From: a virus
Lineage: Duplodnaviria > Caudoviricetes
Virus record (IMG/VR): IMGVR_UViG_3300033141_002871
Location: 1-61,849 of that record
Length of the DNA: 61,849 bases
Direction: 5' to 3' (one strand)
How positions within the stretch are numbered: the first letter of the stretch is position 1; each line of letters starts with the position of its first letter. The translations under genes and the position numbers were made by a program. This document shows, piece after piece, positions 2 to 53,038 of the stretch. Below the pieces are notes generated by a model. It ran no database searches. It worked only from the letters and a program-made list of their open reading frames with translations, and was not told where the DNA came from.

Positions 2-2758
2 GTTCTGGCGCAGCTCTGCAACAGGTTCTTGGACGACCGGGCGCTGCATGCGGCACACCTGGTCGACGGGTTCGTACTGAGGTACGCGGCGAAGGACCTG
101 GGGGGCACGGTGAGGTTCCCGACGAACTGGAGGGAGCACAGAGACGGCAAGGCGGGCTTCGAGGGGGCATACGTCATGGCTCCGGTCGTCGGAATGCACG
201 AGCAGGTATGCGACCTCGACTTCTCGTCCCTGTACCCGTCGATAGTGATCTCCCTGAACATCGGCCCGGAGACGAAGCTGGGAAGGGATAGGGAACCCGG
301 AGGCGGGGTCGTGGTCGCCGAGAACGGAGTTGCCTTCCGGGCGGAGCCGGAGGGCGTGTTCTCGGCGGTCTCCAGGAGAGCGTTGAAAGCGCGGGCCGGC
401 TGGAAGAAGAAGGCGCGGGAATTGGAGGCCGAGGGGAAGGACGGGAGCCTGGAGCACCGGATCGCGAAGCAGAGGTCAGACGCCTGGAAGGTCCTGGCGA
501 ACTCCCTCTACGGCGTGGTCTCCTCGCCGTTCTCCCGGTTTGCGGACAAGGAGTGCGGGGAGGCGATCACGCTCACGGCGAAGGCGGTGATCAAGACAGT
601 CATCAAGGAAGCGAAAAAGGACGGCTTTCGAGTTGTATATGGGGATAGCATTACCGAAGACCGTACTGTTGTCTTACAGAAGCCAAACGGAGCGATTCTG
701 ATAGACTCTATCGGCAATGTTTGGAGGAGGTTCGTTAGGGATTGCGCGAGGGGAAGAAAGGAGAGGGGCACACTTCCGGGGTTCAAGGCACTTGCGAGGG
801 ATAAAAATGGCAGGGTCGGGTGGTTTCCAGTTCGTTTGATTATTCGTCATAAAACCAAGAAAGAGGTATGGCTGGTATCGATGAAGCGGGGGCAGACAGA
901 GGTTACAGAGGATCATGGGATTGTCATAGGCAATGATGTCTACAGGCCCTCGGAGGTTATCGAGAAGAATCTGTGGTTTGAGTCGCTACCCGCTTTACCA
1001 CCAAATCACAAGGGTTTCGGAGTTCTCGACTTGTTTCAGTATCTTCAAGATGTGGAGGTAACGTGGGACTATAAAGGGAGACTTGTCGAGAGATATTTCA
1101 ATGTCGATTCTGAGAGCATTGTGCTTACTGGCTGGGGGAAAGACAGGAGGATGCGGAGGTTTTATCGCCGTGGCAGCCCGGAGATGATGTCGCTTCTCAG
1201 ATTGATAGGGGCCTACGTTGCGGAGGGTAGCGTCACAACTCCAGACTCCGGCAATAGATGGTGTCTTTCAATCTCACAAAATGACGTTGATTGGCTGAAT
1301 GGGATTAGGGAGGATTTCGCGACTGTTTTCCCCGGGACTTACATTTCGCGCCCATTTCATACTTGTGGGTCATATGTGTTGCGGGCGGGTTCAATTTTGC
1401 CATCGATTGCGATGATGGGTCTTTGTGGCATGGGCTCCAGAGAAAAGCGACTTCCAGAGTTTGTATTTGAGCTGCAGAAGGCAGAGTTTGCGGTTCTCTT
1501 TGAAAAGTTGCTTGAGGGGGATGGTTCGGTTAAGAGCAACGGTGTGACTTACACGACAATCTCGCAAGTTCTGATTGCACAGTTGTCGTATCTCTTGGCG
1601 CTCCAAGGATTAGACCATGCGATCCATTATCGAGAGTCAAAAGGCTCATGGAATATCAGATTGCGACCTCCGAATAGTGAGAGGGTGCGTGGGAGGATAA
1701 AGCATACCAAGAGGACTTCAAACGGATATGTCTATGACCTAGAGGTGGAAGGGGCTCACACGTTTGTTGATGGCGTCGGCAGAGTATTATTGCACAACAC
1801 TGATTCGGTGTTCATCAAGTCGACGAAGGAGGTGGCCGAGGAGTTCGCGGAGAAGAGGTGCGCCGAGGTAGTCGACGAGTACATGGCGGCGAGGGGTGCG
1901 AAGACGGGGCTAGTTCGGCTCAAGGTCGATGCGATGTTCGACCGGATTTTCTTCTTGGCGAAGAAGCGGTATGCGGGAAGGAAGGATACCGGCAAGTGGG
2001 AGATCCGGGGCCTGGAGCTTATCAGGTCCGACGGTTGCAGGTACGCGCGGGAGATGCAGCGCAGGATCATCACGTTCCTCCTGGAGTCCGGAACGCCGCG
2101 CCCGCAGGTTGCCGCGAACATTGTCAAGAAGTGGGCGGACAAGTTGTTTGCCGGGGAGGTTCCGGTCGACGATCTCATGTTCGCTCAGTCGCTCTCCAGG
2201 AAGCCGGAGGAGTACAAGACGAAGCCGGTGCATGTTCGTATCGCCGAAAAGATGCTTGGCGACGGTAAGGAGGTTTATGTGGGGATGAAGATCCCCTACG
2301 TGTTGACTGGGGCGTCGGGTGGTAGGTTGGAGGCGGTGCACGTTGACGATTTCGACGGCAAGCTGAACGCCGCACTCTACTGGAAGCGGAAGGTCTACCT
2401 GCCTACTCGCCGGATACTCGACGCGGTGTTTCCGGAGCAGAAGGACGTGTGGGCGTCGCTGCTGAACTATGAGCCGGCGCGGCGGCAGCGGGAGATGTTC
2501 GAGCGGCCGGAGGAGAATGTTGCCGACCCAGTGCTGCTGAAGCTGGGAGCGCCGACCACCGGGCAGATGGAGGAGGTGAAGGGGGTTGTTGAAAAATATC
2601 CTGGGAAGCACGAGATGAAGCTGGAGGTGGATACTGGGGACTCGCTGGTGGTTCTGAGTACTGAGACGAGGGTGAGGATCTGCCCCGACCTTGTCAAGGA
2701 CGTGGAGCGGATTGTCGGACGCAGGGTGTACTATGGGCCTGAGAACTGGGATAAGTGA
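2..2758 (+). CDS. polB: Family B DNA polymerase (5'-truncated by the window) with intein and C-terminal extension
   Basis: PolB motifs DFSSLYPSI, KVLANSLYG, YGD/TDS (split by the intein), KKRYAG, IRGLE; frame is open from the window start. Confidence 0.96.
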   Translation, partial: VLAQLCNRFLDDRALHAAHLVDGFVLRYAAKDLGGTVRFPTNWREHRDGKAGFEGAYVMAPVVGMHEQVCDLDFSSLYPSIVISLNIGPETKLGRDREPGGGVVVAENGVAFRAEPEGVFSAVSRRALKARAGWKKKARELEAEGKDGSLEHRIAKQRSDAWKVLANSLYGVVSSPFSRFADKECGEAITLTAKAVIKTVIKEAKKDGFRVVYGDSITEDRTVVLQKPNGAILIDSIGNVWRRFVRDCARGRKERGTLPGFKALARDKNGRVGWFPVRLIIRHKTKKEVWLVSMKRGQTEVTEDHGIVIGNDVYRPSEVIEKNLWFESLPALPPNHKGFGVLDLFQYLQDVEVTWDYKGRLVERYFNVDSESIVLTGWGKDRRMRRFYRRGSPEMMSLLRLIGAYVAEGSVTTPDSGNRWCLSISQNDVDWLNGIREDFATVFPGTYISRPFHTCGSYVLRAGSILPSIAMMGLCGMGSREKRLPEFVFELQKAEFAVLFEKLLEGDGSVKSNGVTYTTISQVLIAQLSYLLALQGLDHAIHYRESKGSWNIRLRPPNSERVRGRIKHTKRTSNGYVYDLEVEGAHTFVDGVGRVLLHNTDSVFIKSTKEVAEEFAEKRCAEVVDEYMAARGAKTGLVRLKVDAMFDRIFFLAKKRYAGRKDTGKWEIRGLELIRSDGCRYAREMQRRIITFLLESGTPRPQVAANIVKKWADKLFAGEVPVDDLMFAQSLSRKPEEYKTKPVHVRIAEKMLGDGKEVYVGMKIPYVLTGASGGRLEAVHVDDFDGKLNAALYWKRKVYLPTRRILDAVFPEQKDVWASLLNYEPARRQREMFERPEENVADPVLLKLGAPTTGQMEEVKGVVEKYPGKHEMKLEVDTGDSLVVLSTETRVRICPDLVKDVERIVGRRVYYGPENWDK
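647..1798 (+). mobile_element. Intein with LAGLIDADG homing endonuclease in PolB motif C (384 aa)
   Basis: Inserted YGD|S...VYDLEVEGAHTF...LLHN|TDS; block B TEDH; LAGLIDADG helices LIGAYVAEGS and FEKLLEGDGS; visibly lower GC than the exteins. Confidence 0.95.
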
Positions 2759-3351
2759 AAGGAGAGGACATGCCGAAGATTCCAAAGTCGAGAAGGAAGG
2801 AGATCGTGGAGGAGGTCAGAGCTTCCAAGCTGGCCGGAGGATTTGACGAGGACACGCTTGCTTACTTCCGGAAGGAACTGGACATCGACATCGTGGAGGA
2901 GTACCGGGAGCTGAAGGGTGTCGCGCGGGTTCCGGCAGACAAACTGATGGACCGGATGGAACTGGCCCGGGCGGTCAACGCTTGCGGGCTCTCCGCGAGG
3001 AGGGCGAACCTGATCTATCTGAAGGCAAGGGCGGAGCGGGAGTTGTTCCGGATCGAGTTCGACCGGAAGATGCGCGAACTTGCCCGCAAGGCGACAGAGA
3101 GGGTCGAGCGGTGGATGGAGGAGAACGAGGTCAAGAAGAAGCAGATCACGAAGGACATGGTACAGCAGGAGATCGCCAGCGACCCGGAGTTGCGGCGGGA
3201 GTACGAGTATCTGGTGAGACGACAGGAGGAGCTAAAGGCGATCCGGGACGACTGCCAGGTGCTCGCGAAGGAGTGGGCGGACCGGAAGTGGACTCTCCGG
3301 GCGCAGGTCCAGCTTGTTGTCTCGGAGCGGGAAGTGAAGATGTCAGACTGA
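2755..3351 (+). CDS. Helical/coiled-coil protein, UvsY-like recombination mediator candidate
   Basis: KQITKDMVQQEIASDPE...KEWADRKWTL resembles the UvsY pattern; lies upstream of SSB/RecA. Confidence 0.5.
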   Translation: MKGEDMPKIPKSRRKEIVEEVRASKLAGGFDEDTLAYFRKELDIDIVEEYRELKGVARVPADKLMDRMELARAVNACGLSARRANLIYLKARAERELFRIEFDRKMRELARKATERVERWMEENEVKKKQITKDMVQQEIASDPELRREYEYLVRRQEELKAIRDDCQVLAKEWADRKWTLRAQVQLVVSEREVKMSD

Positions 3352-3796: not shown

Positions 3797-5062
3797 ATGG
3801 GAAAGGTAGACAGGGACAAGTTCAAGAGCGATTCGGGTTCTCGGTTTCGGCGAGGCGGGAGGTTCTCCTCTTGGAAAAAGGAGGGAGAGACGGTCGGGTT
3901 CATCCACCCGATGTTCGGGCTGTGGGAGCGGTGGACCCACGGTACCTTGCCGTCGTTCGAGGAGCAGGACGACGGGACGTACATGGTGCGCCGCCGTGCT
4001 ATCAACTGCATGGCGACATCGTCGGACAAGGTGCCGAGCAGCGAGTGTCCGACCTGCCTGCTACAGGAGTTCGCGCGGCAGAAGATTGCCGAGGGAGTTG
4101 ACGACGACGAGGCGATCCTGGACGTCGGTAAGGGGAAGGACCGGATCGTCTACACTCTGAAGGATCTGGCCGGCGAGGCCGGTTACTACACGGACCCGAC
4201 CGCGCGGAAGCAGGTGGTGTTTGCTTGGATTCCTCGGGATAAGGAGTACGAGGAGCTACGCGACGCCGTCGAGATCATCACGGGGCCGCAGACCCTTGGG
4301 TCCCGGATCATCGAGGTGATCGAGGACGAGATCAAGGAGCGCGGTGAGGTCCGCGGGGACGTGGAGGTTCCCGCCGGTTTCGAGCTGGGCCTTCGCAAAG
4401 GCTCACTGGTTCTCATCTCAGACGACGAAGAGATCAAGTGGAGCCCGTTCGGCCTCAAGCTGAAGTACCGGAAGAACGAGACCGCGCAGAACAAGTACGG
4501 GGCCTCGAAGATGGACCGGGACCTGTGCGAGGTGACGCCGAAGATCGCTCAGGTCATGGTCGCGGACGAGGAGGAGCTGGGTATCGACTTGGAGAGGATG
4601 TGTGAGCCGACCAGCTACGACCGGCAGATGGAGATCATCGGGTCGTCGTGGTCGAGTCGCGCGGTGCCTTTCGAGGAGTTCGAGGAGTTCGCGAGGCTGA
4701 GGGGGAAGACCGCCGGCTCTTCGAGGGTCAGGAAGCCGAAGACGGCATCGCCCCGCAACAGGGAGAACGCCGGGAGGAGCGCGAAGGACTCCCGCGGGGT
4801 CTTCTGCCCCGAGTGTGGCGAGGAGAACCGAGCAGGCGCGAAGTTCTGCCAGGGCTGCGGGAGCAAGCTGGGAGGTCGGGAGAAGCCTGCCAGGGATTCC
4901 GATGACAAGGTCGACGACGGTGGCCAGAAGAAGACCGGCGGTGAGGTGGGGAAGGTTCGATGCCCTGAGTGTAACGAGATGGTCGAGCCGATGCGGCCGT
5001 CCGGTAGGTGCCCCGAGTGCGGAGTAAAGCTCGGGGGGCTGGACGACGACGTCCCGTTCTAA
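3797..5062 (+). CDS. Putative ssDNA-binding protein with zinc ribbons and SSB-like acidic tail
   Basis: GGAGGTGA RBS; internal C-x13-CPTC; two C-terminal double CxxC ribbons; ends LDDDVPF; immediately upstream of RecA. Confidence 0.65.
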   Translation: MGKVDRDKFKSDSGSRFRRGGRFSSWKKEGETVGFIHPMFGLWERWTHGTLPSFEEQDDGTYMVRRRAINCMATSSDKVPSSECPTCLLQEFARQKIAEGVDDDEAILDVGKGKDRIVYTLKDLAGEAGYYTDPTARKQVVFAWIPRDKEYEELRDAVEIITGPQTLGSRIIEVIEDEIKERGEVRGDVEVPAGFELGLRKGSLVLISDDEEIKWSPFGLKLKYRKNETAQNKYGASKMDRDLCEVTPKIAQVMVADEEELGIDLERMCEPTSYDRQMEIIGSSWSSRAVPFEEFEEFARLRGKTAGSSRVRKPKTASPRNRENAGRSAKDSRGVFCPECGEENRAGAKFCQGCGSKLGGREKPARDSDDKVDDGGQKKTGGEVGKVRCPECNEMVEPMRPSGRCPECGVKLGGLDDDVPF

Positions 5063-9959: not shown

Positions 9960-10523
9960 GTGATACCGGAAACTAAAATTAACGACGTCAGGGTCGAGCA
10001 CTTCGAGGTGTCGGAATCTGAATCCGCTCTGACCTACATTAGGGGACGCGGGGTTCCTCCGGGGAAGTATGTCCGGTTATTCGTTGACGGCGACCTGATG
10101 ATGTCTAACACGCCGGAAGAGATCCGCAGCAACATGGATTTCATTATTTTCGCGACTGGGGATGTGTTGGTAGCCGGGCTGGGTTTGGGAGTTATTTTGC
10201 ACAAGCCGCTGGAGCGGGAGGACGTGAAGAGCATCCTGGTGATCGAGAAGTCGCAGGACGTCATAGACGCGGTGCTGCCGCATATCGGGCACCCCAGGCT
10301 CGAAGTGGTCTGCGCCGATATCTTCGACTGGAGACCCCCGAAGGGTAGGAAGTGGGATACCATCTACTTCGACATCTGGCCGGATATTTGCGTCGACAAC
10401 CTGGAAGATATCTCCAGGCTCAAGCGCAAATTTGCGCGCCGGCTCCGGAGGGACAACCCGAAGGCGTGGATGGCGGCTTGGCAAGAGGACACTCTGCGTT
10501 ACATGAGAAGGAAGGGAAGATAA
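9960..10523 (+). CDS. SAM-dependent methyltransferase (spermidine-synthase-like fold)
   Basis: MMSNTPEE, VLVAGLGLG, VIEKSQDVI, ADIF, YFDIW. Confidence 0.8.
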   Translation: MIPETKINDVRVEHFEVSESESALTYIRGRGVPPGKYVRLFVDGDLMMSNTPEEIRSNMDFIIFATGDVLVAGLGLGVILHKPLEREDVKSILVIEKSQDVIDAVLPHIGHPRLEVVCADIFDWRPPKGRKWDTIYFDIWPDICVDNLEDISRLKRKFARRLRRDNPKAWMAAWQEDTLRYMRRKGR

Positions 10524-14656: not shown

Positions 14657-15438
14657 CGGAAGGTTCTCCGGCATTATGGGTGCAATCCACGTGTTCATGT
14701 CGGAGGAAGCCGCCGCTACAGAGATGGAACTGACCGGAAGACGAGGGAGCAAGTGGAGAATTGTGAGGGCGAGGCTGGAGGTCGAGGATGACAACGAGGA
14801 AGATGGTTCCGGACAGGCGGAAGCTGGTCGGTAGGTTCTGGACGCGCGACGACTGGTCCTGGCAAGGATACGTCAGTCTGGGCCTGCACGGCAGGGCATA
14901 CGTCGTGATCGAGCACAACCGGGCGGAGAACAGGAAGGGGCCGGGGGACTGCGACCTGGTCATGTATATCGCTGAGAGAGACGGCAATGGCAAGGAGTGA
15001 AAGATGGAGAAATCCGGGGAGGCGCGCGAGGTCTACAGGTGCAGATTTTGCCGGAGGGAGTTCGGTTCGAGGATCGCGTTGAGTCGGCATATGAACGAGA
15101 GGGCGAGGCTGGGAACGTGTCCTGTGAAGTCGAGGAAGAGAGGTCGTCGAAGTACTGTCGGGACTTGAAGCGGGCGTCTTGCGGCGAGTGGAACAAACAA
15201 GAGGACGTCGAGGAGTTTACGTGAGGGAGGAGATATGCTGGTAATATTTTCAAGACCGGAGAAGCTCGCGGAGTACCTGAAGGAACAAGGTTTCCGGGTA
15301 GAGACGGACGACATAGAGTTCTCAGGGGTGAGGATGAGAATTATACGGTGGGAGGGACCGGACAAGCGGCAGCTCTCGTTGCTGGAGGCTGCGAGGAGTC
15401 AGGAGTCTCTGTTTGTCGAGGAGGAAGATGATGAATAA
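14610..15438 (+). other. Run of four small coupled hypothetical ORFs (14610-14834, 14788-15000, 14997-15224, 15235-15438)
   Basis: Overlapping starts/stops and RBSs; the last ORF contains QLSLL and QESLF. Confidence 0.55.
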
Positions 15439-15961
15439 TCTGCCCGACAAGCGGTACTCCGTGATCTATGCAGATCCTCCTTGGTCCTACAGGGACAGGA
15501 GCATGAATAGAGGAGGGTCTGCGCGGCACTACGAGACCCTTCTGGTGAAAGATGTCATGTTGCTTCCGGTGCAGCGAATTTCCGCTTCCGACTGCATGTT
15601 GTTTCTCTGGACGACTTGTCCGATACTTCCGGTGGCTCTTTCGGTCATGACCGCCTGGGGCTTCTCGTACAGGACAGTCGCGTTCGTCTGGGTCAAGACT
15701 ACCGGCAAGGGAGATCTTGCCTGGGGCATGGGGCACTGGACCAGGGCGAACGCGGAGCTGTGCCTGCTCGGGATCAATGGCAAGCCGAAGCGGGTATCTG
15801 CCGGCGTTCATCAGGTCGTCATGTCACGGAGGCTGGAGCACAGCAGGAAGCCGGCAGAGGTGCGGGACCTGATAGTGCAGCTCGCCGGCGACGTGCCCCG
15901 GATCGAGCTGTTCGCCAGGGAGAGGGTTCCGGGCTGGGATGCCTGGGGAAAAGAGGTGTGA
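15428..15961 (+). CDS. MT-A70 family adenine methyltransferase
   Basis: IYADPPW, LFLWTT, WGF.Y.TVAFVWVK, TRANAE, HSRKP, IELFAR. Confidence 0.92.
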   Translation: MMNNLPDKRYSVIYADPPWSYRDRSMNRGGSARHYETLLVKDVMLLPVQRISASDCMLFLWTTCPILPVALSVMTAWGFSYRTVAFVWVKTTGKGDLAWGMGHWTRANAELCLLGINGKPKRVSAGVHQVVMSRRLEHSRKPAEVRDLIVQLAGDVPRIELFARERVPGWDAWGKEV

Positions 15962-17543: not shown

Positions 17544-18542
17544 CAATGTGGTGGTTTGATCCTAGTTGGAGGAATGCACGATGCACAAACTGCGGCGTGA
17601 GGATAGTAGATACGGGGGGCGATCCCGATTGGGGATACTGTTATGACTGCTACAGTCACATGGTGAGCCAACAACAGGAATACGAGTCACCAGATTCGCC
17701 GATTGTTTGCTCAATCTGTAAGAACGATTACGCGGTCTGCATGGAAAGCGGGTTTGATGTTTGTTCGCCGGAGTGTGCCGACGAGGCGGTGAGAAGATCG
17801 CGCAGCCATTTTCGATAACTGGAGGTGGAAAGATGAGAGCCCCCAGAACAGCCAGAGAAGCCGCCTGGCTCTCGTTGGTCCACTGGCGGAAGATGAACCG
17901 GTGGGTTGAAAAGCAGAATCCTGCTGTGTACCCAAGCAACATCAACATGCGCGGGGCAATATTCGTCAACTGGAAGGGGCGGTACTGTGCCCTGTGCACA
18001 TGGTCACGGGCAGAGGCAAATCGCTGCCATGAGGATAGGGAGGGCTTTACGCCGTGTTTTTACTGCCCATTGGCCAAGAAGTATGGTCCTTGCGGTACTG
18101 AAGGGAATGCTTGGGCGGAGAATGTTTGGACATTGGTAAACTCGGCTGATACCTGGGCCGAGTGGCTCAAGTATGGCCGCCGCATGGAGCGGCAGATTGA
18201 GACCGTGTGGAGGGAATTGAGATGATGAAGTTCGGAGTTTTTCTGGACGGTCCGCTGGCAGGGGAGTTTAGAAGAGTGGAGGCCCTGCCGAAGATCAACA
18301 TTCCTCTGCCCAAGAGGATAACTGTATGTGACTGCGACCCGGAGTTTGAGTCGGTCACCGAGGACGCACCTGCGGGGGTATTCACGTATTACCGGATCGC
18401 CATCGGAGAACAGATCGCGTTCTACTCGAAGTACGAGGATGACTACGAGGCGATCAAGTGGAGTATCAAGACGATGTTGCTCTCCAACATCAACGCTGAT
18501 GTCTGGGTCCGCAACTGCAGAAGCCTGCGGGCCTACGAGTAG
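17540..18542 (+). other. Three small Cys-rich hypothetical ORFs (17540-17818, 17833-18225, 18222-18542)
   Basis: Coupled ORFs with CxxC pairs and RBSs. Confidence 0.6.
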
Positions 18543-18552
18543 GGGGTGTGTC

Positions 18553-18912
18553 ATGATTCTGGTATTTGTTTCTGGCCCGATAGCTGCGAACAATACGTGG
18601 CTGCGGGAGCGCAACATTCGGAGAGCGGAGGAGGTTGCCTTGGAGCTGTTGGAGTACGGCTACTCGGTGTTCTGCCCGCACACGATGACCCGGTTCTTCG
18701 AGGGTGCGTTACCACCGAAGGACTTTTACCAGGCAGACCTAGAGGTGCTGCGTCGCTGCGACGCGGTCCTTCTCATTCCGGGCTGGGAGGACAGTACTGG
18801 ATCGCGTGAGGAGCTGAGGGAGGCGAACCGGAGAGGGATTCCGGCGTTCACGGACCTGAACGTACTGAAGATGGCGCTTCCGCCCTGCGGCGGAGAGGAG
18901 GAAGGAACATGA
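18553..18912 (+). CDS. Nucleoside 2-deoxyribosyltransferase-like (DUF4406/DUF1937 type) protein
   Basis: VFVSGP, FCPH, LRRCDAVLLIPGWEDSTGSREE. Confidence 0.8.
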   Translation: MILVFVSGPIAANNTWLRERNIRRAEEVALELLEYGYSVFCPHTMTRFFEGALPPKDFYQADLEVLRRCDAVLLIPGWEDSTGSREELREANRRGIPAFTDLNVLKMALPPCGGEEEGT

Positions 18913-24282: not shown

Positions 24283-25518
24283 ATGGGCAAGAAGCGTAGG
24301 TCGAAGGTCGCGGGAGTACCTACAGAGAGAAGGCGCTTGTCTGAGTTGATTCCTGCCAGCTACAACCCGCGCAAGATTTCCGACGAAGCCAAACTTGCCC
24401 TGAGAAGGAGCATCGAGGAGTTCGGGCTGGTCCAGCCGATAGTCTGGAACAGGAGGACCGGGAGGGTTGTCGGCGGGCATCAGAGGCTCTCGATCCTGGC
24501 GGAAATGGGTGTCAGGGAGGTCGAGGTGGCCGAGGTGGATCTCGACGACTCCCATGAGAAAGCCTTGAACATAGCTTTGAACAGCGAGCGGTTGCAGGGA
24601 GAGTGGGATCTGCCGGCGCTGCGGGAGGTCCTGGGTGGCCTGGAGGCCGAGGGTTTGGGCGGGTTGTTGAAGGATCTGGATGTCGAAGGCCTGTTGTCCG
24701 ATATGGTGAGGGAGTACGAGAGCGACCCGAGGTGCTTGCTGGACAAACCCAAGTCCGCAGGATCCGCGCCGGCCTACCCCGAGCCGGACGCGGATGCCTC
24801 AGAGGTTGTCAGAGAGTGCGACCGGATGGTCGTCGAGTTCTCGGGCGGGAAGGACTCCACGGTCGCACTGGGATGGGCGCGGGCGGTATCGGAGAGGACG
24901 GGTCGGCCGTTGACGGCCCTGTTCGTCGAGACGGGCGCGGAGTTCCCGGATCTGACACTTCATGTGGCGAGGGTGTGCCGGGAGATGGGTGTCGACCTGA
25001 AAATGCTGCACCCGGAGCGAAACATCGTGGCGCACTATTACGGTGTCGGGAAGTGGCCAAGCCCCATTTACAGGGACTGCCAGTCCAGGTTCATAAACGA
25101 CGTGGTCGACCGGTACTGCCGACAGCAGTTCGGAGAAGAGATAGTGGCGACTATCAGGGGAGGACGCAAGGATCAGAAGACGTCCCGGACAAGGGGCATC
25201 GCATGCAAGAGGGTGTCCGGTAAGGGGCCGGTCAAGTGGCTGATTAGCCCGATGTACGGACAAGACTCCGAGTCTTACGCCGCCGAGTTGAAGAGAGTGG
25301 AAAGGCACCTGTGGCGCGGCTACAACTTGGGGTTCGTGCGGACCGCCTGCTGGATGTGCCCGTTCCAACTGACCGAGCAGTGGGAGGCGATGAAGAAACA
25401 CTACCCGCTGCTGTGGAGAGGCATGCTGCACCTGTCGAAGACCTTGGAGTTCCAGGTGGCCAGAGGGGACAGATACTGGCCCAGGTTCAGAAACTACTGG
25501 AGGAGAGCCTCCGAGTAA
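24283..25518 (+). CDS. ParB/Srx N-terminal domain fused to PAPS-reductase-like (PP-loop) domain
   Basis: YNPRKI, SIEEFGLVQPIVWN, GGHQR; then FSGGKDS, ETGAEFP, GFVRTACWMCPF. Confidence 0.88.
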   Translation: MGKKRRSKVAGVPTERRRLSELIPASYNPRKISDEAKLALRRSIEEFGLVQPIVWNRRTGRVVGGHQRLSILAEMGVREVEVAEVDLDDSHEKALNIALNSERLQGEWDLPALREVLGGLEAEGLGGLLKDLDVEGLLSDMVREYESDPRCLLDKPKSAGSAPAYPEPDADASEVVRECDRMVVEFSGGKDSTVALGWARAVSERTGRPLTALFVETGAEFPDLTLHVARVCREMGVDLKMLHPERNIVAHYYGVGKWPSPIYRDCQSRFINDVVDRYCRQQFGEEIVATIRGGRKDQKTSRTRGIACKRVSGKGPVKWLISPMYGQDSESYAAELKRVERHLWRGYNLGFVRTACWMCPFQLTEQWEAMKKHYPLLWRGMLHLSKTLEFQVARGDRYWPRFRNYWRRASE

Positions 25519-32402: not shown

Positions 32403-33075
32403 ATGGTCGAGACCTGGAACTACGTGGCCGGAGATCTGAGGGGCGTCGGGCTGATGCTGGCGGAGGCGCTGCGGGCGGCGGTCGGGACGAGGGTCCGGGT
32501 AGCGCCCCTGGAGATGTCCATCGCCTCCAAGCTGGGGCTGTGGCTGAGGGGCGAAACGGAGGACGTCAAGACAGTCCGTGAGAGGCTTGAGAAAGTCTTG
32601 GACGAGAGGAAGATCGAGTGGCACGCGCTGAGGTGGACGGAGAACCGGGCGAGAGGAGGCTGAGATGGCATTGTCGATGACGAAGAGCGAGCTGGTGAAG
32701 ATGCTGGACGCGAAGATCCGGTCGAGGGTCAGGTGGAGGCTGGACGAGATAGTGGACCGGGAGTCCGGGTTCGGGAATCCACCGACCGTTGACGAGAAGA
32801 AGCTGAAGGCCCTGGCCGCCCGGATCTACGACGACGTCATCTCGGACAGCAGCTACGACGAGAACCTGCTGAAGGCGACGAGGGCGCTGGGGGACGGTAA
32901 GTTCACCGCGACCTACGTCCGGCGGCTGATCAAGAGGGGCCTCGGGGACGGCACGTTCACGGTCGAATCGGCTCGGTTGGCCAAGCTGGTCACTGAGGCT
33001 GTGAAGGTGGAGACCGAGAGGAAGGCAGTTACCTTCACGACGAAGAGCGGAAAAAAGGTGGTCTTCAAGGGATGA
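32403..33075 (+). other. Two hypothetical ORFs (32403-32663, 32665-33075)
   Basis: Coupled ORFs in the head module. Confidence 0.6.
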
Positions 33076-34028
33076 AGGTCCTGGTCACTGGAGGGCTCGG
33101 GTTCATCGGCTCGGCCCTGGTTCGGAAGCTGCTGAGGCGGGGGGACTCGGTCCTGAACGTGGACACGATGACCTACGCCGCCGATCCACAGAATGTCAAC
33201 GAGGTGATGCCGAGCGATCGGTACGAGTTCGCGAAGCGGGACGTTGCCGATTCGGAAGCCTTCGCCGACATTTGCCTCCGGTACGGGCCGGACGCTATCG
33301 TCCACCTCGCTGCGCACTCCCACGTCGGCAACTCGATCAAGGAGCCGGCACCGTTCTACCGGGCGAACTACCTCGGGACGGTCTCTGTGCTTGAGGCCGC
33401 GAAGAGGCTCGGATGCAGGGTGCTCTGCGTCGGCACCGACGAGGTGTACGGAGACAGGGAGGGGGCGGAGCCGGCGACGGAGAACACTGCGATGAAGCCG
33501 TCGAGCCCCTACTCCGCCTCTAAGGCGGCCGCGGACCTCGTCTGTGGTGCGTATCGTCGGACCTACGGGGTGGACGTCGTGGTGGCGAGGCCCTGCAACT
33601 GCTACGGACCCTATCAGCACCCGGAGAAGCTGGTCCCGAAGGCCCTGATCTCGATGGCGTGTGGATCGAAGGTGCCGCTCTACGGGGACGGGCAACAGGT
33701 CCGGGAGTGGCTCTACGTCGAGGACTGTGCGGAGGCCCTGCTCATCCTCCTGGAGAAGGGGGAGGCCGGAGATGCGTACAACGTGGGTAGCGGGGAGAGG
33801 CTGTCGAACGTCGAGCTGCTGAAGACGCTGGCGGACCTCTGCGGTGTGAGCTACGCGGACTCGATCCGGCCGGTTCAGGACAGGCCGGGGCACGACCGGA
33901 AGTACGCGATGGACAGCTCCAGGCTGGCGGCCCTCGGCTGGAAGCCGGGCTTCGACCCGGAGGAGGGGTTCGCGGCGACCGCCGAGTGGTACAGGCTGAA
34001 CGACTGGTGGTGGAGGTGGAAGATATGA
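33072..34028 (+). CDS. rfbB: dTDP-glucose 4,6-dehydratase
   Basis: VTGGLGFIGS, TYAAD, HLAAHSHV, TDEVYG, SPYSASKA, PEKLVP, DRPGHDRKY. Confidence 0.93.
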   Translation: MKVLVTGGLGFIGSALVRKLLRRGDSVLNVDTMTYAADPQNVNEVMPSDRYEFAKRDVADSEAFADICLRYGPDAIVHLAAHSHVGNSIKEPAPFYRANYLGTVSVLEAAKRLGCRVLCVGTDEVYGDREGAEPATENTAMKPSSPYSASKAAADLVCGAYRRTYGVDVVVARPCNCYGPYQHPEKLVPKALISMACGSKVPLYGDGQQVREWLYVEDCAEALLILLEKGEAGDAYNVGSGERLSNVELLKTLADLCGVSYADSIRPVQDRPGHDRKYAMDSSRLAALGWKPGFDPEEGFAATAEWYRLNDWWWRWKI

Positions 34029-43346: not shown

Positions 43347-44047
43347 TGGCGACCCTGTCAGACATGAGAGACGAGGTGAGGCGGAGGATCGGAAGCCCGG
43401 ACACCACCGAGGTTCCGAACAGCGACATCGAGGCGGTGATTCAGAGCGAGGCGCTTGACTGGCTGAACAGGAGGCTCCCGGGTCGGAAGATCTCCTCGTT
43501 CACGACGGTCAAGGACCAGCAGGACTACGATGAGAAGCCGGCCAACGCCTACCTCGTGACTGCCGTCTGGTGGATGGAGAGCGACTTCCAGTTCTTCTCC
43601 CCGTCGATGAAGTACGTCGCGCAGGACCAGGACATCAACGAGAAGCTGGCGGGGTTCGACATCTACAAGGACACTGCGCTGGTCGAGGCGTTCTACAAGC
43701 AGCTTGAGACGTACAAGCACAACTTCAAGGGGGAGGGCTTCGAGACGGACGAGGGGAAGATCCGGCTGGAGCCCGTCCCGTCCTCCGGGGGAGACACGGT
43801 CTACTTCGAGTACAGCTACCCGAGGTGGAGCGACCCGACGGGCGTTCCGGACCGCCTTGTTCCCGGACTGAAGAAGAAGGCCGCCGCGATAATCCTCGAC
43901 TACCTGGCCGTGAGGCGCGGCCGGGTAAGGGGCGGCCGCAACTTCACCGGGGGCGGGGGAGAGAGGGAGGCGAACCTTGCCGGGAAGTTCCACGCGGAGG
44001 CGGATGGGGAGGTTCCGGCGCTAACAGTCGCTATCGGGCGGGGATGA
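43346..44047 (+). CDS. Head-tail adaptor/neck protein candidate
   Basis: MATLSDMRDEVRRRIG, FTTVKDQQDY, IRLEPVP pattern typical of adaptors; position after the capsid module. Confidence 0.65.
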   Translation: MATLSDMRDEVRRRIGSPDTTEVPNSDIEAVIQSEALDWLNRRLPGRKISSFTTVKDQQDYDEKPANAYLVTAVWWMESDFQFFSPSMKYVAQDQDINEKLAGFDIYKDTALVEAFYKQLETYKHNFKGEGFETDEGKIRLEPVPSSGGDTVYFEYSYPRWSDPTGVPDRLVPGLKKKAAAIILDYLAVRRGRVRGGRNFTGGGGEREANLAGKFHAEADGEVPALTVAIGRG

Positions 44048-46908
44048 TGAGCAAGAAAAAGGGTCGTCCTCTGTGGAGACAGAACGTCAGCGGGAAGCGG
44101 CAGATCGTCTCGCAGTATCCGAAATCAATCGTTGTGGAGCCTGGAGAGTGGGTGAGATCGGACGTCGTCGGCTGGGACACAGACGATTTCTCGGAGCCTA
44201 CAAAGATGAGTTCGTCGTTCAGTCGGATGGCAGAGGTGCGGGACGTGCACGGAAACGTCGTGCGGATTCTCGTTCCTGATACCGGGCCAACATCTCCAGG
44301 CGTCGAGGTTCCGGGAGGATCCGTCTCCATTGTTGTTCCGGTCTATGGACAGCACGAGTACCTGGCGGAGTGTCTCCGGGCGATCCGGAGGTCCAGTTCC
44401 CACGCCTTGGCGGAGGTCGTGGTCGTCGACGACAAGCCGGACGAGCCGGTCCCGGACGAGTTGGCGGCCGGGTGCGTTCTGGTGCGGAACGAGAGGAACG
44501 TGGGGTTCGGTGCCGCGTGCAACCGGGGCGCGGAGAAGTCGGCCGCCCCGTGGATTCTGTTCCTGAACAGCGACTGCGTGCCGGCCGGGGACTGGCTCTC
44601 GGATCTGCTCCGGACCGCGAGGCGGATGGCCGCGGAGGTGGTCGGAGCGCGGCTCCTCTACCCTCAGAGCCGCTCGGTGCAGCACGGCGGGATGAAGCGG
44701 GACGGTGACCTGTTCGTCCACGAGAAGGGAAAGTTGTCGGAGTTCTCGGAGGATCGGCACGTCCTCGCGGTCAGCGGGGCCTGCATGCTGGTGAGTCGGC
44801 AGGCGTGGGAGAGGCTCGGCGGGTTCGATCCGGAGTACGGGAAGGGGTACTTCGAGGACGTCGACCTGTGCCTGAGCTGGATCGAGGTCGGCGGCAGGGT
44901 CGCCTACTGCGGCTCGACGGAGATCGAGCACCACGAGTCGGTGTCGCAGGGGAAGCGGACGAAGGAGTGGGAGGAGCGGTTACAGAGGTCCGCCTCCGTG
45001 TTCCGGAAGAAGTGGCCGGCGACGCGGCTGGACGCGGCTGTAGAGAAGTATCCGCCGGTCCCGAGGGTGGATATCGTGGTCGCGGTGCACAACGCGCTGA
45101 GGCAGACGGCGGACTGCCTCAGGTCAATCGAGGAGAGGACTCCCGGCTGGATCGACTGGGAGGTGACGGTCCTGGACGACGCGAGCGAGCGGTTCGTCTC
45201 CGAGTGGCTCCGGGCCTGGTGCCGGGAGCACGAGAGGTTCTGCTACGTCCGGAGCGAGGTGAACCGTGGCTACCTTTCCTCGATAGACGAGGCAACGAGA
45301 ATCACTAGCCGTGAGTGGATCTGCTACGTGAACAGCGACGTCATCGTTACGGACGGCTGGCTCGGCGCGATGCTCTGCGCCGCCGAGGCCGACCCGAGGG
45401 TCAAGATCGTGAACCCGCACACGAACAGCGCCGCCCACCTGTCGATCCAACCGCCGCCCGGCTCCAACTACGTTGATGCAGACGCCCGGCTCATGGTGTC
45501 GAGCCCGCGCCGCAGGTTCGACGTCGTGACCCCGGTCGGCTTCTGCATGTTGGTCGAGCGGGAGGCCCTGGCCGAGTGCGGCGGCTGGGACGTCGAGTAC
45601 TACGGGAGGGGGTACGGCGAGGAGTGCGACCTCTACATGAGGATGCTGGAGCGCGGGTACAGGTCGGTCGTCGCGGACGACTGCTACGTCCTGCACGAGG
45701 GCGGGGCGACGTTCGGCCTGTTCGGCAGCAAGGCGGACCAGGAGCGGGCCGGCTACCTCCGCTTCATGAAGCGGTGGAAGGCAGGCATCGAGCCGATGCT
45801 GGCCCGGTTCAACCGGGAGGCCCCGCACCGGGTCTCCGAGGCCGCGATGACCGGGGCGACGACGGAGCGTCCGAGGGTCGTGTTCGCCTTCTCCGGGGAG
45901 GCGACCCTATGCGGCGGGGTGCTGGCGGTCGTCCACATCTGCAACCGGCTAATCGAGCACGGGTGGAACGCCACGTTCGCCTGCACGAGGCTCTCCCCCG
46001 AGACCCTGAAGCTGCTCGGCGCGAGGTTCAGGCCCCTGGTCTACTCGGATCGGGCGAGACTGATTTCCGGCCTGGCGGCCCAGGCACCCGCCGTGATCGT
46101 GGCGACGATCTGGTTCAGCGTGCGGGACGTGCTGGCGGCCTGCGGGAAGGCCGAGGGACTCGTTCCCGCTTACTTCGTCCAGGACGTCGAGTACATGTTT
46201 CGGTATCCGAGCGGGGAGCCCTACGTCTCGGAGGAGGAGGTCGTCGGGACGTGGCTGTCGATTGACAGCATTGTGGCCAATTCGGACTGGGTTCTGGAGA
46301 CCATTCGCGAGAAGACTGGGGATTCCTCTCTGGGCCGGAAGATCGGGATCGGGGTGGACCCGCTAGTATTCTACCCGAGGGAGAAGCCGTCCGACCGGAT
46401 CGTCGTGATGGCGCATTGCCGACCGTCGACTCCTCGGAGAGGATGGGACGTGCTGGCAAGGGTTCTGGCCGGGCTGAAGGCGTCGTTCGGGGACGCTGTG
46501 CGGACGGTCGTCTACGACCAGAAGCCGGTCGGCATTCGAGTCGACGAGTCGATGGGCCGGGTTTCCCCGCACGAGCTGGCGAGGCGGATGGGGGAGGCGC
46601 ACCTGTTCCTGGAGGGCTCCAGGTTCCAGGGCTGGGGAATGCAGGCCCTGGAGGCGATGTCGTGCGGCTGCGCTTTAGTGAGTACGGAGAACCGGGGCAT
46701 CGACAACTACGGTACGGACGGCTACGACTGCGTCGTTGTTCCTCCCCACTCTCCGGAGGCGATGCTCGGGGCGGCGAGCGCATTGGTACGTGATGCCGGT
46801 TTGAGGGCTGGTATCGGGCACTGCGCACGCGAAACTGCCAAGCGGTTCGACTGGTCGGTCGTCGGGGAGGCGTGGCACGGATTCCTCTCCGATTTATTTA
46901 GCGGATAA
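44044..46908 (+). CDS. Multidomain glycosyltransferase (GT2-GT2-GT4-like) with N-terminal motif
   Basis: SIVVPVY, NVGFGAACN, FLNSD, YFEDVD; second GT2 VNSD, YGEECD; GT-B CGGV, QGWGMQALEAMSCG. Confidence 0.9.
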   Translation: MMSKKKGRPLWRQNVSGKRQIVSQYPKSIVVEPGEWVRSDVVGWDTDDFSEPTKMSSSFSRMAEVRDVHGNVVRILVPDTGPTSPGVEVPGGSVSIVVPVYGQHEYLAECLRAIRRSSSHALAEVVVVDDKPDEPVPDELAAGCVLVRNERNVGFGAACNRGAEKSAAPWILFLNSDCVPAGDWLSDLLRTARRMAAEVVGARLLYPQSRSVQHGGMKRDGDLFVHEKGKLSEFSEDRHVLAVSGACMLVSRQAWERLGGFDPEYGKGYFEDVDLCLSWIEVGGRVAYCGSTEIEHHESVSQGKRTKEWEERLQRSASVFRKKWPATRLDAAVEKYPPVPRVDIVVAVHNALRQTADCLRSIEERTPGWIDWEVTVLDDASERFVSEWLRAWCREHERFCYVRSEVNRGYLSSIDEATRITSREWICYVNSDVIVTDGWLGAMLCAAEADPRVKIVNPHTNSAAHLSIQPPPGSNYVDADARLMVSSPRRRFDVVTPVGFCMLVEREALAECGGWDVEYYGRGYGEECDLYMRMLERGYRSVVADDCYVLHEGGATFGLFGSKADQERAGYLRFMKRWKAGIEPMLARFNREAPHRVSEAAMTGATTERPRVVFAFSGEATLCGGVLAVVHICNRLIEHGWNATFACTRLSPETLKLLGARFRPLVYSDRARLISGLAAQAPAVIVATIWFSVRDVLAACGKAEGLVPAYFVQDVEYMFRYPSGEPYVSEEEVVGTWLSIDSIVANSDWVLETIREKTGDSSLGRKIGIGVDPLVFYPREKPSDRIVVMAHCRPSTPRRGWDVLARVLAGLKASFGDAVRTVVYDQKPVGIRVDESMGRVSPHELARRMGEAHLFLEGSRFQGWGMQALEAMSCGCALVSTENRGIDNYGTDGYDCVVVPPHSPEAMLGAASALVRDAGLRAGIGHCARETAKRFDWSVVGEAWHGFLSDLFSG

Positions 46909-46912
46909 ATAA
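46894..46912. promoter_or_regulatory. 19-bp palindromic site, copy 7
   Basis: TTATTTAGCGGATAAATAA overlapping the GT stop codon. Confidence 0.75.
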
Positions 46913-46923
46913 GGGAGGTCCCG

Positions 46924-47934
46924 ATGAGGATCATGTTGAACAACTACTCGTATCCTGGCCTGGTCCGCGCGCTGGAGGATGCGGGGCACGAGGTCCTCGG
47001 GAAGACCGCCGGGCCGGACGAGTTCAACTGGTGGCATCACCTGATCAACCTGGGGAGGTCAAACGAGGAGTACGACGCGATTCTCCGCTCCCAGATCGAG
47101 GAGCACCGGCCCGACGTCTACTTGTGCGGCAAGGGCTGGCACTTCTCGAAGATGATCTCTCCGGAGACGACCGAGTGGATTCGGGAGAGGGTCGGCTGCA
47201 CCCTGTACTGGAGCCTCGACGATCCGGACTTCATGCAGACGTTCTCGGAGCTGGAGATGTGGCGCGGCTACGACGTCGCCCTGACCTGCTGCGGCGAGTG
47301 CGTGAGGCAGTACGAGGAGATGGGTCTGGAGGCGCACCTGTTCTGGCCGGCCTGGGACCAGGAGGCGAGGGAGCCGGTCGTCGAGGTCCCGGAGGACAAG
47401 AGGTTCGCTGACTTCCTGATCGTCGGGACTCCCTACGCGCACACGGTTCCGGCGAGGCGGGACGTCGCGAAGGCGGTGTCGGAGCTGGGCGCGGACCTCT
47501 GGCTCTACGGTCCTGATAGCTGGGTGAAGCAGGAGCACGGCGGTTACTCGTCGCTCTGGAAGCACTACCACGGGTACTGGAAGGAGTGGGGCAGGGTCCA
47601 CGACCTGTTCGCCGGTGCCAGGGTCAACTTCTCGAATCATGTCAGGCGGGCCGAGGGTTACTTGAATGATCGGGTTCCGATGGTGATGGGGGTTGGCGGG
47701 GTGCTCTTTCTCGACCGGCAGCCGGGCCTGGACAAGTGGTTCGTCGACGGGGAGGAGGTCGTGTTCTTCGACGACCTGAAGGACCTCGTCTCGAAGCTGA
47801 TGTACTACCTTCCGAGGCCGGAAGAGAGGGCGAGGATCGGCAGGGCCGCGAGGGAGAAGACGCTGTCGGCGCACACGTACAGGCACCGGGCTGAGCAGCT
47901 CCTTGACATCCTGGCGGCGAGGGGGCTGAAGTGA
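46924..47934 (+). CDS. CgeB-like GT-B glycosyltransferase
   Basis: WSLDDP, LNDRV, F.DGEEVVFF, R.RIGRAARE..L..HTY.HRA. Confidence 0.85.
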   Translation: MRIMLNNYSYPGLVRALEDAGHEVLGKTAGPDEFNWWHHLINLGRSNEEYDAILRSQIEEHRPDVYLCGKGWHFSKMISPETTEWIRERVGCTLYWSLDDPDFMQTFSELEMWRGYDVALTCCGECVRQYEEMGLEAHLFWPAWDQEAREPVVEVPEDKRFADFLIVGTPYAHTVPARRDVAKAVSELGADLWLYGPDSWVKQEHGGYSSLWKHYHGYWKEWGRVHDLFAGARVNFSNHVRRAEGYLNDRVPMVMGVGGVLFLDRQPGLDKWFVDGEEVVFFDDLKDLVSKLMYYLPRPEERARIGRAAREKTLSAHTYRHRAEQLLDILAARGLK

Positions 47935-48353
47935 AGACCCGGGGTAACGTAAACGTCCATCCGACCGCGGAGATTCGCAGCGACGTGGAGCAGGTGTCGA
48001 TGATTGCCCTGGAGGGCGGCTTGATTGAGATCGGGGAGGGAGTGTTCGTCAACAACGGGGTCTGGATTCGCTCCGCGGCAAGCGTGTCTATCGGAGCCTG
48101 GTCGAAGATCGGCCCGAGAGTGATGATCATGGATTCCGACTCCCACGACACCGCTCCGGGACACGGGCCAGCGTCGGGGGCGAAGCCGGTCGTCATTGAG
48201 GAGGACGTCTGGATCGGGGCTGGGGCGATCATCCTGAAAGGTGTCCGGATCGGAAAGCACTCGGTCGTCGGAGCCGGCTCCGTAGTTACCCGGGACATAC
48301 CTGCGTCCACCATCGTTGCCGGAAACCCTGCGAGGGTTCTGAGGCAGGTATGA
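47931..48353 (+). CDS. Hexapeptide-repeat sugar O-acetyltransferase
   Basis: DSDSH, PVVIEEDVWIGAGAIILKGVRIG, VGAGSVVTRDIP, AGNPAR. Confidence 0.92.
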   Translation: MKTRGNVNVHPTAEIRSDVEQVSMIALEGGLIEIGEGVFVNNGVWIRSAASVSIGAWSKIGPRVMIMDSDSHDTAPGHGPASGAKPVVIEEDVWIGAGAIILKGVRIGKHSVVGAGSVVTRDIPASTIVAGNPARVLRQV

Positions 48354-49477
48354 GGCTCCTTTTTGTCAACCCGAGGGGGAGCGTTTCGGACGGCAAGTGG
48401 CTGCCGCTCGGGTTCGCCGGCGTGGCGACCCTGGCGATTCGGGCCGGGCACGAGGTGCTCCTTGTCGACGAAGAAGCGGGCCGTGGGTTCTCCGGGAAGG
48501 ATCTGGGCTGGTGCGACGTCGTTTGCGTAACTGGGATGACTCATCAGGCTGCCGGGATTCGGAGAGTCGCTGAGAGATCTCTGGAGGTCGGTCGGCGGGT
48601 GATTGTCGGCGGCGTGCACGCGAGCCTGACAGCGGACGGACTGCCGGAGGGCGCGGAGAGGTTCCGGGGGCCTGCAGAACATGCCTTTCTGGAGGCCCTG
48701 GAGGCCCCTGGGAGCGCGAGGGCCGGAAGACCCGACCCGGACCACCTGATGCCGCCGAACAGGCTCAGAACGGGCTGGAGGCGCTACAGGGAGGCGGTTG
48801 ATGGCAGGAGGGCAGCGCGGGTTCTCGGAGCGGTGGGCTGCCCGTTCCGATGCAAGTACTGCTGCAACCGGACACTGACCGGCGGACGATTCAAGCCGAG
48901 GTCCCCCGGTTCAGTCGCCAGGGAATTCAAGTGGCTGAAGCGGGAGGGGGTGGAGATCGTCCTGTTCGCGATGTCCGCCTTCTCGATCCGGCGCGCCTGG
49001 GTCGAGGACGTGTGTGGGCGACTGGCGAAGATCGGCATTCCTTGGCGGGCGACGACCCGGGTGGACCTGGTAGACGCCGATCTGCTTCGGACGATGAAGG
49101 CCGGAGGATGCGAGCGGCTCGGGTTCGGGGTGGAGTCGGGAGACGACGAGATTCTGAGGATCATCGGCAAGGGGACGACCGTGGAGCAGGCGGAACGCGC
49201 CTTCCGGCTCTGCCGAGAGGTTGGACTAGATACTTGGGCGATGTTGATGACCCACGTGCCCGGGGAGACTCATGCGAGCCTGCGGAGAACAAGGAGATTC
49301 GCCGATCGGCTCCGTTCCGAGTTCGGGGCTGAAGTGACCTTCCAGCGGTTCAGTCCGCTACCCGGCAGCGCGTTCTGGGACGAGCTGGACCGGTGGGGAG
49401 TGGTCGACGAGGCGGACGGGACCGGGTTCGGCCCGGTCAAGTTCACGCCCTGGGACTTCGTGGAGGTGGGGAGATGA
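48350..49477 (+). CDS. B12-binding radical SAM protein (class B methyltransferase-like)
   Basis: PLG, IVGGVHAS, GCPFRCKYC, FGVESG, PGET, PLPGS. Confidence 0.9.
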   Translation: MRLLFVNPRGSVSDGKWLPLGFAGVATLAIRAGHEVLLVDEEAGRGFSGKDLGWCDVVCVTGMTHQAAGIRRVAERSLEVGRRVIVGGVHASLTADGLPEGAERFRGPAEHAFLEALEAPGSARAGRPDPDHLMPPNRLRTGWRRYREAVDGRRAARVLGAVGCPFRCKYCCNRTLTGGRFKPRSPGSVAREFKWLKREGVEIVLFAMSAFSIRRAWVEDVCGRLAKIGIPWRATTRVDLVDADLLRTMKAGGCERLGFGVESGDDEILRIIGKGTTVEQAERAFRLCREVGLDTWAMLMTHVPGETHASLRRTRRFADRLRSEFGAEVTFQRFSPLPGSAFWDELDRWGVVDEADGTGFGPVKFTPWDFVEVGR

Positions 49478-51962: not shown

Positions 51963-51994
51963 ACCGGAGGGTGAAGGGATGAACCGGAGGGTGA
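51952..51994 (+). repeat. 20-bp tandem duplication at a gene junction
   Basis: TGAAGGGATGAACCGGAGGG x2. Confidence 0.9.
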
Positions 51995-52698: not shown

Positions 52699-52699
52699 G

Positions 52700-53038
52700 A
52701 TGGGCCTGAGGTATGCGAGGAACGTGAGCGGGAAGATCCAGATCGTCCCGAACTACGAGACGGGCGTTGCCCTGGAGATTGCCCCGGGGGAGATCGTGCT
52801 GTACGAGAAGGTGGCTCCGGACGGAAAGCTGTTTCCCGGATTTGAGCTACACTCAGAGGTCGAGCCGTACAGTCCGAAGGCCCCGAAGAGGCCGCCGACC
52901 CCAAAGGTTCCGGTGCCTCCGAAGACTCCGGTTCCGGAAAAGGAGAAGGCCATCGCCCCGAAGAGGACCGCGAAGCCGAGGAAGAAGACCGGGGCGAAGC
53001 CGAGGAAGCGGGCGACTCGGAAGAAGGCGGCCAAGTGA
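52700..53038 (+). CDS. Small protein with RNVSGKIQIV motif and a P/K/A-rich histone-H1-like tail
   Basis: AAGGAGG RBS, ATG 52700. Confidence 0.75.
   Translation: MGLRYARNVSGKIQIVPNYETGVALEIAPGEIVLYEKVAPDGKLFPGFELHSEVEPYSPKAPKRPPTPKVPVPPKTPVPEKEKAIAPKRTAKPRKKTGAKPRKRATRKKAAK

Follow-up and report, generated by a model that had tools for sequence, protein, structure and literature searches.

How is a phage DNA polymerase tied to the replication fork when its catalytic core belongs to one polymerase family and its tail resembles that of another? The question is raised by the first gene of IMG/VR record IMGVR_UViG_3300033141_002871, a linear viral record that was analysed over its whole length of 61,849 bases (hereafter the window) and whose completeness CheckV estimates at ~31%. 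This gene encodes a family-B DNA polymerase (PolB) that continues beyond its thumb into a motif of the bacterial beta-clamp type and then into an end domain that is very probably homologous to the C-terminal domain of DnaE, Pol III's alpha subunit. Replicative polymerases of families B and C are not related to one another and are regarded as belonging to separate replisome designs; the tail would place the docking module of a bacterial family-C enzyme, a clamp hook together with a domain of the tau-binding type, on a family-B core. The parts, namely PolB, a beta motif like that of Pol II and a DnaE end domain, are each known, and it is their combination that is new.

No prior description of a PolB with a DnaE-type tail was found in the literature searched. 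The combination is not described in the parts of two viral replicase surveys that were consulted (PMC3201878; PMC4889955), and the main text of a B-family survey makes no mention of DnaE, PolIII, tau or clamp-binding (PMC7544198).

A family-B polymerase with a conserved tail

The gene and the parts of its tail are laid out as follows:

2..2758, + strand: family-B DNA polymerase, the 3' three quarters of the gene; an open frame of 918 aa, its 5' end cut by the end of the contig
2486..2500, + strand: QREMF, a Q-x-x-[L/M]-F motif of the kind that binds the bacterial beta clamp, recognised by conservation and by alignment with Pol II; binding is predicted
2501..2527, + strand: variable linker, probably disordered; its length and sequence vary, and the predicted local distance difference test score (pLDDT) is <50 for tail residues 4-11 in both structure models
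2528..2755, + strand: C-terminal domain of the DnaE (Pol III alpha) tau-binding type, recognised by fold and profile matches; tau binding is predicted

Membership of family B is clear from PF00136, which matches the frame with E 1.2e-41 (143.4 bits against a cut-off of 23), and from the presence of motif C, YGDTDS, which is split here by an intein. The PF00136 match ends at residue 804 of 918, and QREMF stands at residue 829, just beyond the thumb. Positions 2486-2758 of the + strand encode the last 90 residues, which read QREMF, ERPEENVAD and PVLLKL...RRVYYGPENWDK before the stop, so that the window has a linker of 9 residues and an end domain of ~76. The original prediction, made from the DNA before the present analysis, had described QREMF after the thumb followed by a tail of ~80 aa beginning VLLKL, and the translation agrees with it exactly. 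A full-length form of the polymerase, P0002 (1217 aa), has a tail that is 100% identical.

The tail is conserved well beyond this one protein. An exhaustive phmmer search with the 90 residues against 1.84 billion representatives returned seven proteins at E <= 0.001: P0002 itself, the C-termini of five related PolBs, and P0005, a 1072-aa repeat protein (E 1.2e-8, over six short stretches) whose match was put down to composition or repeats and set aside. Another 10 loci, with PolBs 41-52% identical, came from a scan of metagenomes and brought the distinct C-termini to 14. Q-x-x-[L/M/I]-F is present in 13 of the 14, as QREMF, QQELF, QGDMF, QKDLF, QSDLF, QRSLF, QPTLF, QGDLF, QMTLF (in two distinct tails), QTNLF, QSSIF or QANLF; the other, P0009, carries QGALP. 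Across the 13 tails that were aligned the Q is invariant and the F at least 90% conserved. The end domain is also present in 13 of the 14 distinct C-termini, at 31-63% identity to that of the window, with a divergent copy in locus L077 (22%) that contains an insertion, and the linker between motif and domain differs among the relatives in both length and sequence. The PolBs of loci L069 (3-2273) and L070 (5339-7672) are without the domain: they stop 17 residues past QANLF, and the next gene follows immediately. From composition, a protein should contain ~0.12 such motifs; P0002 contains exactly one, in the conserved column. Since the motif is so rarely expected, and since motif and domain are both conserved in diverged relatives, the tail is more than a product of chance.

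Fold and profile kinship of the end domain with the DnaE C-terminus

The C-terminal domain of DnaE1 is reported to bind tau and to be so poorly conserved that its detection needed comparison of hidden Markov models (HMMs) with one another (PMC3919608). Structure and profiles were both compared. Two AlphaFold2 models of the tail, built from alignments of 7 and 13 rows, agree in a beta-alpha-beta-beta-alpha-beta topology, with strands at residues 16-21, 39-49, 54-63 and 82-85 and helices at residues 25-36 and 67-77; the mean confidence is moderate (pLDDT 73.6 and 72.2). When the first model was searched against the PDB with Foldseek, Thermus aquaticus Pol III alpha took ranks 1-5, the best at E 5.9e-4 with probability 1.00 and a query-normalised TM score of 0.57, which was the sole row at E <= 0.001. 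With the second model, Pol III alpha chains took ranks 1-7 (best E 1.3e-3). Realignment of the Foldseek list with VIA-align again placed Pol III alpha at ranks 1-5, with Z scores of 8.2, 7.5, 7.2, 5.8 and 5.1 and the next fold at 4.5; here T. aquaticus alpha 1129-1205 gave Z 7.5 (root-mean-square deviation (rmsd) 3.2 over 73 aligned residues) and Escherichia coli alpha 1078-1160 gave Z 5.8 (rmsd 3.0, 76 aligned).

A search of 48,161 representative chains that was independent of Foldseek found two chains only at Z >= 5, and both are the extreme C-terminus of Pol III alpha: T. aquaticus 1113-1200 (Z 8.2, rmsd 6.3, 80 aligned) and E. coli 1078-1160 (Z 5.6, rmsd 3.1, 76 aligned). Next came generic HMA, KaiB and ACT-like folds at Z <= 4.5. 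It is this gap to the next fold, and the selection of the same domain every time, that give the fold evidence its weight. A fold search of BFVD gave no match at E <= 0.001, and its rank 2 was a DNA polymerase of an uncultured siphovirus (E 0.1). Comparison with the DnaE C-terminal domain had been put forward as the check on the original prediction, and the modelled fold does match the C-termini of both T. aquaticus and E. coli alpha.

The profile comparison used DnaE C-termini from 61 Pseudomonadota genomes, all 61 of which were matched and which returned 30 loci; 23 of these were aligned, the other 7 (antisense or broken in frame) being left out, so that the set represents Pseudomonadota domains only. 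Against these 23 domains hhalign gave a probability of 75.3% (P 2.5e-5) with 7 tails and 87.7% (P 3.4e-6) with 13, over 55 columns that span helix 1, strands 2-3 and helix 2. Control alignments that had been reversed reached P 1.1e-3 and 4.2e-3, and the best of 30 column shuffles P 0.047. The tail profile used with hmmsearch recognised 8 of the 23 DnaE domains at E < 0.01 (best 2.6e-6), compared with 2 of 23 when these were reversed (best 5.9e-3). In a PDB sequence search Mycobacterium tuberculosis DnaE1, at residues 1113-1178 of 1184, improved from E 0.99 with the single sequence to 0.29 with 7 tails and 0.16 with 13, at which point it was the top PDB match of the profile. The best Pfam family over 7 tails was PF20914 (DNA_pol_IIIA_C), seen in one of them at E 0.024. 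Among the 30 nearest named clusters in the ESM Atlas, 14 belong to a set that carries PF20914; the top such cluster scores 0.95 and has the family on 24% of its members.

The Atlas neighbours of positions 2486-2755 also include free-standing proteins of 90-99 aa, some with PF20914, from bacteria and tailed phages. Because its clusters hold such proteins, genes that encode the DnaE end domain alone may be in circulation as well.

Several results count against this kinship. A Z score near 8 is common as a best score with this tool, and the alignment at Z 8.2 has an rmsd of 6.3 Å. As the reversed controls reach P ~1e-3, the symmetric periodicity of the beta-alpha-beta-beta-alpha-beta fold must make up part of the profile score. 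The window's own tail has no Pfam family at E <= 0.1, and PF20914 lies under its gathering cut-off in all tails; the same model gave nothing at E <= 1 in the window and nothing at E <= 10 in the window's tail. It is a narrow model, which rang in 6 of 14 control genomes and passed its cut-off in 1. An HMM of 7 tails found no match at E <= 10 in the E. coli K-12 chromosome and 35 matches at E <= 1 in 201 Pseudomonadota genomes (best 0.016). Since these are weak and fall in frames of assorted lengths, a plain search of HMM against sequence does not single out DnaE.

Set against these results, both a structural and a profile match to the DnaE C-terminal domain were found, and the DnaE-like end domain of the original prediction is supported by each (for the profiles, by the 13-tail hhalign match). 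We therefore regard homology as very probable.

The clamp motif and a possible place in the host replisome

In an alignment of eight rows the motif of the phage PolBs occupies the columns of the terminal QLGLF of E. coli Pol II, with Q779 and L782 invariant. QLGLF is reported as the beta-binding peptide of Pol II, with the consensus QL[S/D]LF (PMC3716654), and bacterial PolB groups are likewise reported to carry a beta-clamp motif (PMC12926913). The clamp-binding PIP box is described as having an aromatic pair at positions 7-8 (PMC3201878); no such pair is present here, and the phage motif is therefore not a PIP box. What is found is a conserved Q-x-x-[L/M]-F pentapeptide in a flexible segment, matched column by column to the motif of Pol II, and the clamp motif of the original prediction is borne out to the extent that alignment can do so. 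A distant PolB (27% identity) at 142-2391 of L004, a contig of a Patescibacteria metagenome-assembled genome, also ends ...QQELFD at its extreme C-terminus, and for this reason the clamp motif is probably older than the end domain.

Complex prediction was carried out with the 13-row tail alignment and an E. coli beta dimer, which took the place of the beta of the phage's host. The score was 0.43 (runs 0.43, 0.41 and 0.44), compared with 0.00 for the best of 3 controls; this is weak support for binding, and likeness to solved peptide-beta complexes may explain it. Contact agreement among runs was at least 67% and partner pLDDT at least 74, and no contacts were reported. Of 157 solved complexes 116 attained the mark set for this score, only 18 of the 157 doing so with a value <= 0.60, as against 2 of 215 mismatches. 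We consider it probable that the phage polymerase uses the host beta clamp.

The genes around PolB bear on what the clade might bring to replication itself, and their order is conserved among relatives. Upstream of PolB in L071, L070 and L073 lie a superfamily 2 (SF2) helicase, a DnaB-like helicase, a DnaG-like primase and a zinc-ribbon/DUF3102-like protein, and L070 additionally has a loader-like ATPase of the IstB/DnaC kind. Downstream follow a conserved protein of ~200 aa, a zinc-ribbon protein of ~440 aa and UvsX. The protein between primase and PolB (L071 8906-9967, L070 3221-4390, L073 6158-7423) is itself conserved at 354-422 aa: a zinc ribbon at its N-terminus is joined by a long linker, acidic and of low complexity, to a DUF3102-like domain. 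The interval lies ahead of the first base of the window. On that composition the gene was rejected as a candidate for a beta-like clamp.

No clamp or clamp-loader family was recognised among the open reading frames (ORFs) of the window (58 searched by Pfam, 71 by PHROGs), a record of ~31% of the genome. None was recognised either in the 30 flanking ORFs within 10 kb of PolB in L071, L070 and L073 (all 30 by Pfam, the 16 left unexplained also by PHROGs). The expectation that the phage would lack a clamp and loader of its own thus holds for the 61.8-kb window and the flanks of three relatives, and for the ~31% of the genome that was seen.

The reading that we favour, and consider somewhat more probable than all its rivals together, is the one that the original prediction proposed: PolB would work on host beta and tau in place of Pol III alpha. 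The phage would supply its own DnaB-type helicase, DnaG-type primase and PolB; QREMF would take the host beta clamp for processivity; the grafted domain would tether PolB to the host clamp loader via tau; and at the fork PolB would stand in for Pol III alpha. For binding of the end domain to tau, taken by itself, we find the case evenly balanced. A wider scenario is offered tentatively, as something rather less probable than its negation: the whole T4-like clade may have given up, or never had, a clamp and loader of the T4 type, and may run a hybrid replisome on host beta and the tau loader by way of a domain captured from a family-C replicase, whose occupancy of tau would displace Pol III alpha and help to shut off host replication.

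There are objections to this docking as well. Tau's C-terminal domain is reported not to be conserved between E. coli and T. aquaticus and to bind alpha differently (PMC4703070), and in Bacillus subtilis the corresponding domain of DnaE3 is reported not to be the main tether (PMC3919608); because of this variation, kinship of the domain is no proof that tau is bound. With ~69% of the genome unseen, a clamp and loader of the phage's own may be encoded there. The absence of the domain from L069 and L070, which are sister to a domain-bearing PolB, also means that it is dispensable in at least one lineage.

The same observations lend themselves to a different partner. A true relative of the DnaE domain could have been re-used to hold a phage DnaB-like helicase, the tail of a single-strand DNA-binding protein or another replisome protein, with the motif still on host beta; the lineage-variable C-terminal domain of tau (PMC4703070) and the different role of the DnaE3 domain in B. 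subtilis (PMC3919608) would fit this, as would a helicase and primase of the clade's own and one lineage (L069/L070) that lives without the domain. We consider it unlikely, since no phage partner is evident: the UvsY-like neighbour (an Atlas lead only) is kept in L070, which lacks the domain, and the gene upstream of PolB, a zinc-ribbon and DUF3102-like protein, is not a hub. Less likely still is that motif and domain serve a phage-encoded clamp and loader in the unseen ~69%, in the manner of the gp43 tail and gp45 of T4, and that the host parts go unused. The T4-like head genes, UvsX and gp46/47-like genes speak for such a system, T4-like phages are reported to carry C-terminal clamp-binding motifs on their polymerase (PMC3201878), and only 31% of the genome is in hand. 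Against it, the motif is the 5-residue bacterial type, which lacks the aromatic pair at 7-8 and is in register with Pol II's own beta motif, and PolB is surrounded by replication genes of the bacterial kind (DnaB, DnaG). In T4 the clamp and loader genes adjoin gene 43, and here no clamp or loader family appears in the 61.8-kb window or in the 10 kb on either side of PolB in L071, L070 and L073.

The rival that would remove the link to DnaE altogether holds that an unrelated ferredoxin-like domain has converged on a very common fold and has another role, such as DNA binding or stability. The fold is indeed common, with many HMA, KaiB and ACT-like chains at Z 3-4.5, the reversed controls reach P ~1e-3, and no single-sequence or Pfam match is significant. 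Convergence is nevertheless very improbable. Five independent signals, each weak to moderate, choose the DnaE domain (Foldseek, VIA-align over the wide set, hhalign, the PDB sequence profile, and Pfam with the Atlas), two of them, hhalign and the PDB profile, rise as sequences are added, and the domain has the position that it has in DnaE, behind a beta motif and at the very end of a replicative polymerase.

Evolution, phage setting and comparison with known systems

A maximum-likelihood tree was built from 13 PolB rows, with one short outgroup row left out and the root at the midpoint only; it does not resolve the basal order. The 10 members of the phage clade group at 100/100, and within it L070, which has no end domain, pairs as sister with L068, which has one, at 100/99. 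None of the three outgroups (E. coli Pol II, L003 and L004) carries the end domain. These sequences are read most simply as one gain at the clade's base, followed by a loss in L069/L070. In DnaE an oligonucleotide/oligosaccharide-binding (OB) fold is reported between the beta motif and the end domain (PMC3919608). As only a short linker separates the two here, the domain was apparently joined to a pre-existing motif like that of Pol II and not copied together with the motif of DnaE. The phage domain ends in a conserved YYGxExWD that was not seen in the 23 DnaE domains.

The polymerase gene of the window carries one further element:

647..1798, + strand: LAGLIDADG intein of 384 aa, which splits polymerase motif C (YGD / S...HN / TDS)

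It has an endonuclease domain (PF14528, E 1.3e-6), Ser 1, a terminal His-Asn and Thr +1, and is inserted in a conserved motif; the Intein_splicing model matched at E 4e-4, under its cut-off (20.7 against 35.8 bits). P0003, which is 80% identical, is intein-free, and its uninterrupted motif C reads YADTDS. Given its absence from P0003 and the other relatives aligned, the intein looks like a recent invasion.

Directly after PolB, at 2770-3351, is a helical protein of ~193 aa that is 42-53% identical in L070, L071, L073 and L074. It belongs to no Pfam or PHROG family, and its nearest ESM Atlas clusters have UvsY (PF11056) on 11-42% of their members, which is a lead only. As a candidate partner of the end domain this gene was not supported, in view of that lead and of its retention in domain-less L070. 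Between it and UvsX is a conserved protein of 421 aa (3797-5062; relatives ~444 aa) with two C-terminal zinc ribbons, possibly the single-strand DNA-binding protein of the phage.

The GC skew is >0 in all 2-kb windows of the record, and all likely genes picked lie on the + strand and cover 94% of the window. They encode a T4-type portal (PF07230), a Gp23 capsid protein (PF07068), a prohead protease and a tape-measure protein, as well as a UvsX-like recombinase, Mre11/Rad50-like and RuvC-like proteins and an NlpC/P60 domain. The closest cultured phages are remote (PolB identity <= ~28%, capsid <= 34%), so no host can be inferred from them. Close relatives were sought in viral contigs with the tail and with P0003, and none was found; genome contigs searched with the PolB alignment gave 5 distant PolBs only (20-31% identity), none of which bears the domain, and these therefore offer no host clue either. 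A Shine-Dalgarno site, AAGGAG, precedes the gene next after PolB, 12 nt past the PolB stop. Together with the DnaB-, DnaG- and IstB-type parts and the NlpC/P60 domain, this indicates a bacterial host. The gene content points to an uncultured T4-like tailed phage of bacteria.

Amid the structural genes is a large sugar-modification island (33072-34028 and 43825-54379), with an NAD-dependent epimerase/dehydratase, several GT2/GT4 glycosyltransferases (one of 1027 aa), a hexapeptide acyltransferase, a B12-binding radical SAM enzyme and a sulfotransferase-GT2 fusion. DNA or nucleotide modification genes are found at 9960-10520, 15413-15961, 18328-18912 and 24283-25518: a methyltransferase (phrog_15480), an MT-A70 methyltransferase, a nucleoside 2-deoxyribosyltransferase-like protein and a fusion of ParB-N with a PAPS reductase.

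If docking on host beta and tau is correct, the phage swaps the engine of the host replisome and keeps its chassis, and its polymerase would in nature compete with Pol III alpha for both tau and beta. The tail would then also be a compact, transferable tethering module for the study and engineering of bacterial replisomes, and the domain-less sister lineage L069/L070 provides a natural comparison within the clade.

Of the known systems, the closest to the tail itself is the C-terminal domain of Pol III alpha DnaE1 (PF20914; E. coli ~1078-1160, T. aquaticus ~1129-1205), with which it shares its fold, its best structural match and its profile kinship. In both, the domain stands at the extreme C-terminus of a replicative polymerase and downstream of Q..[LM]F, the upstream motif of E. 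coli alpha being QADMF. Unlike in DnaE1, the phage domain is carried on a family-B core and not on a family-C one, and motif and domain are separated by ~9 linker residues, with no OB domain in between. It also differs in ending with YYGxExWD and in scoring under the Pfam cut-off, and its tau binding is predicted only.

The core has its nearest counterpart in E. coli Pol II, another family-B enzyme, which is 24-28% identical to the seven PolBs of the phage clade aligned with it and has its motif after the thumb in the same columns. Pol II, however, terminates at the motif, to which the phage enzyme adds a linker and an extra domain, and its work is cellular repair and restart rather than phage replication.

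With gp43 of T4 and RB69 the phage enzyme shares the standing of a replicative PolB, in a phage with T4-like head genes, and a C-terminal clamp-binding peptide (reported for gp43 in PMC3201878). The tail of gp43 binds gp45, the clamp of the phage itself, whereas the motif here is of the bacterial beta type, and PolB identity to cultured T4-like phages is <= ~28%. No gp45, gp44 or gp62 was seen in the DNA examined, and the helicase and primase of the relatives are of the DnaB and DnaG types.

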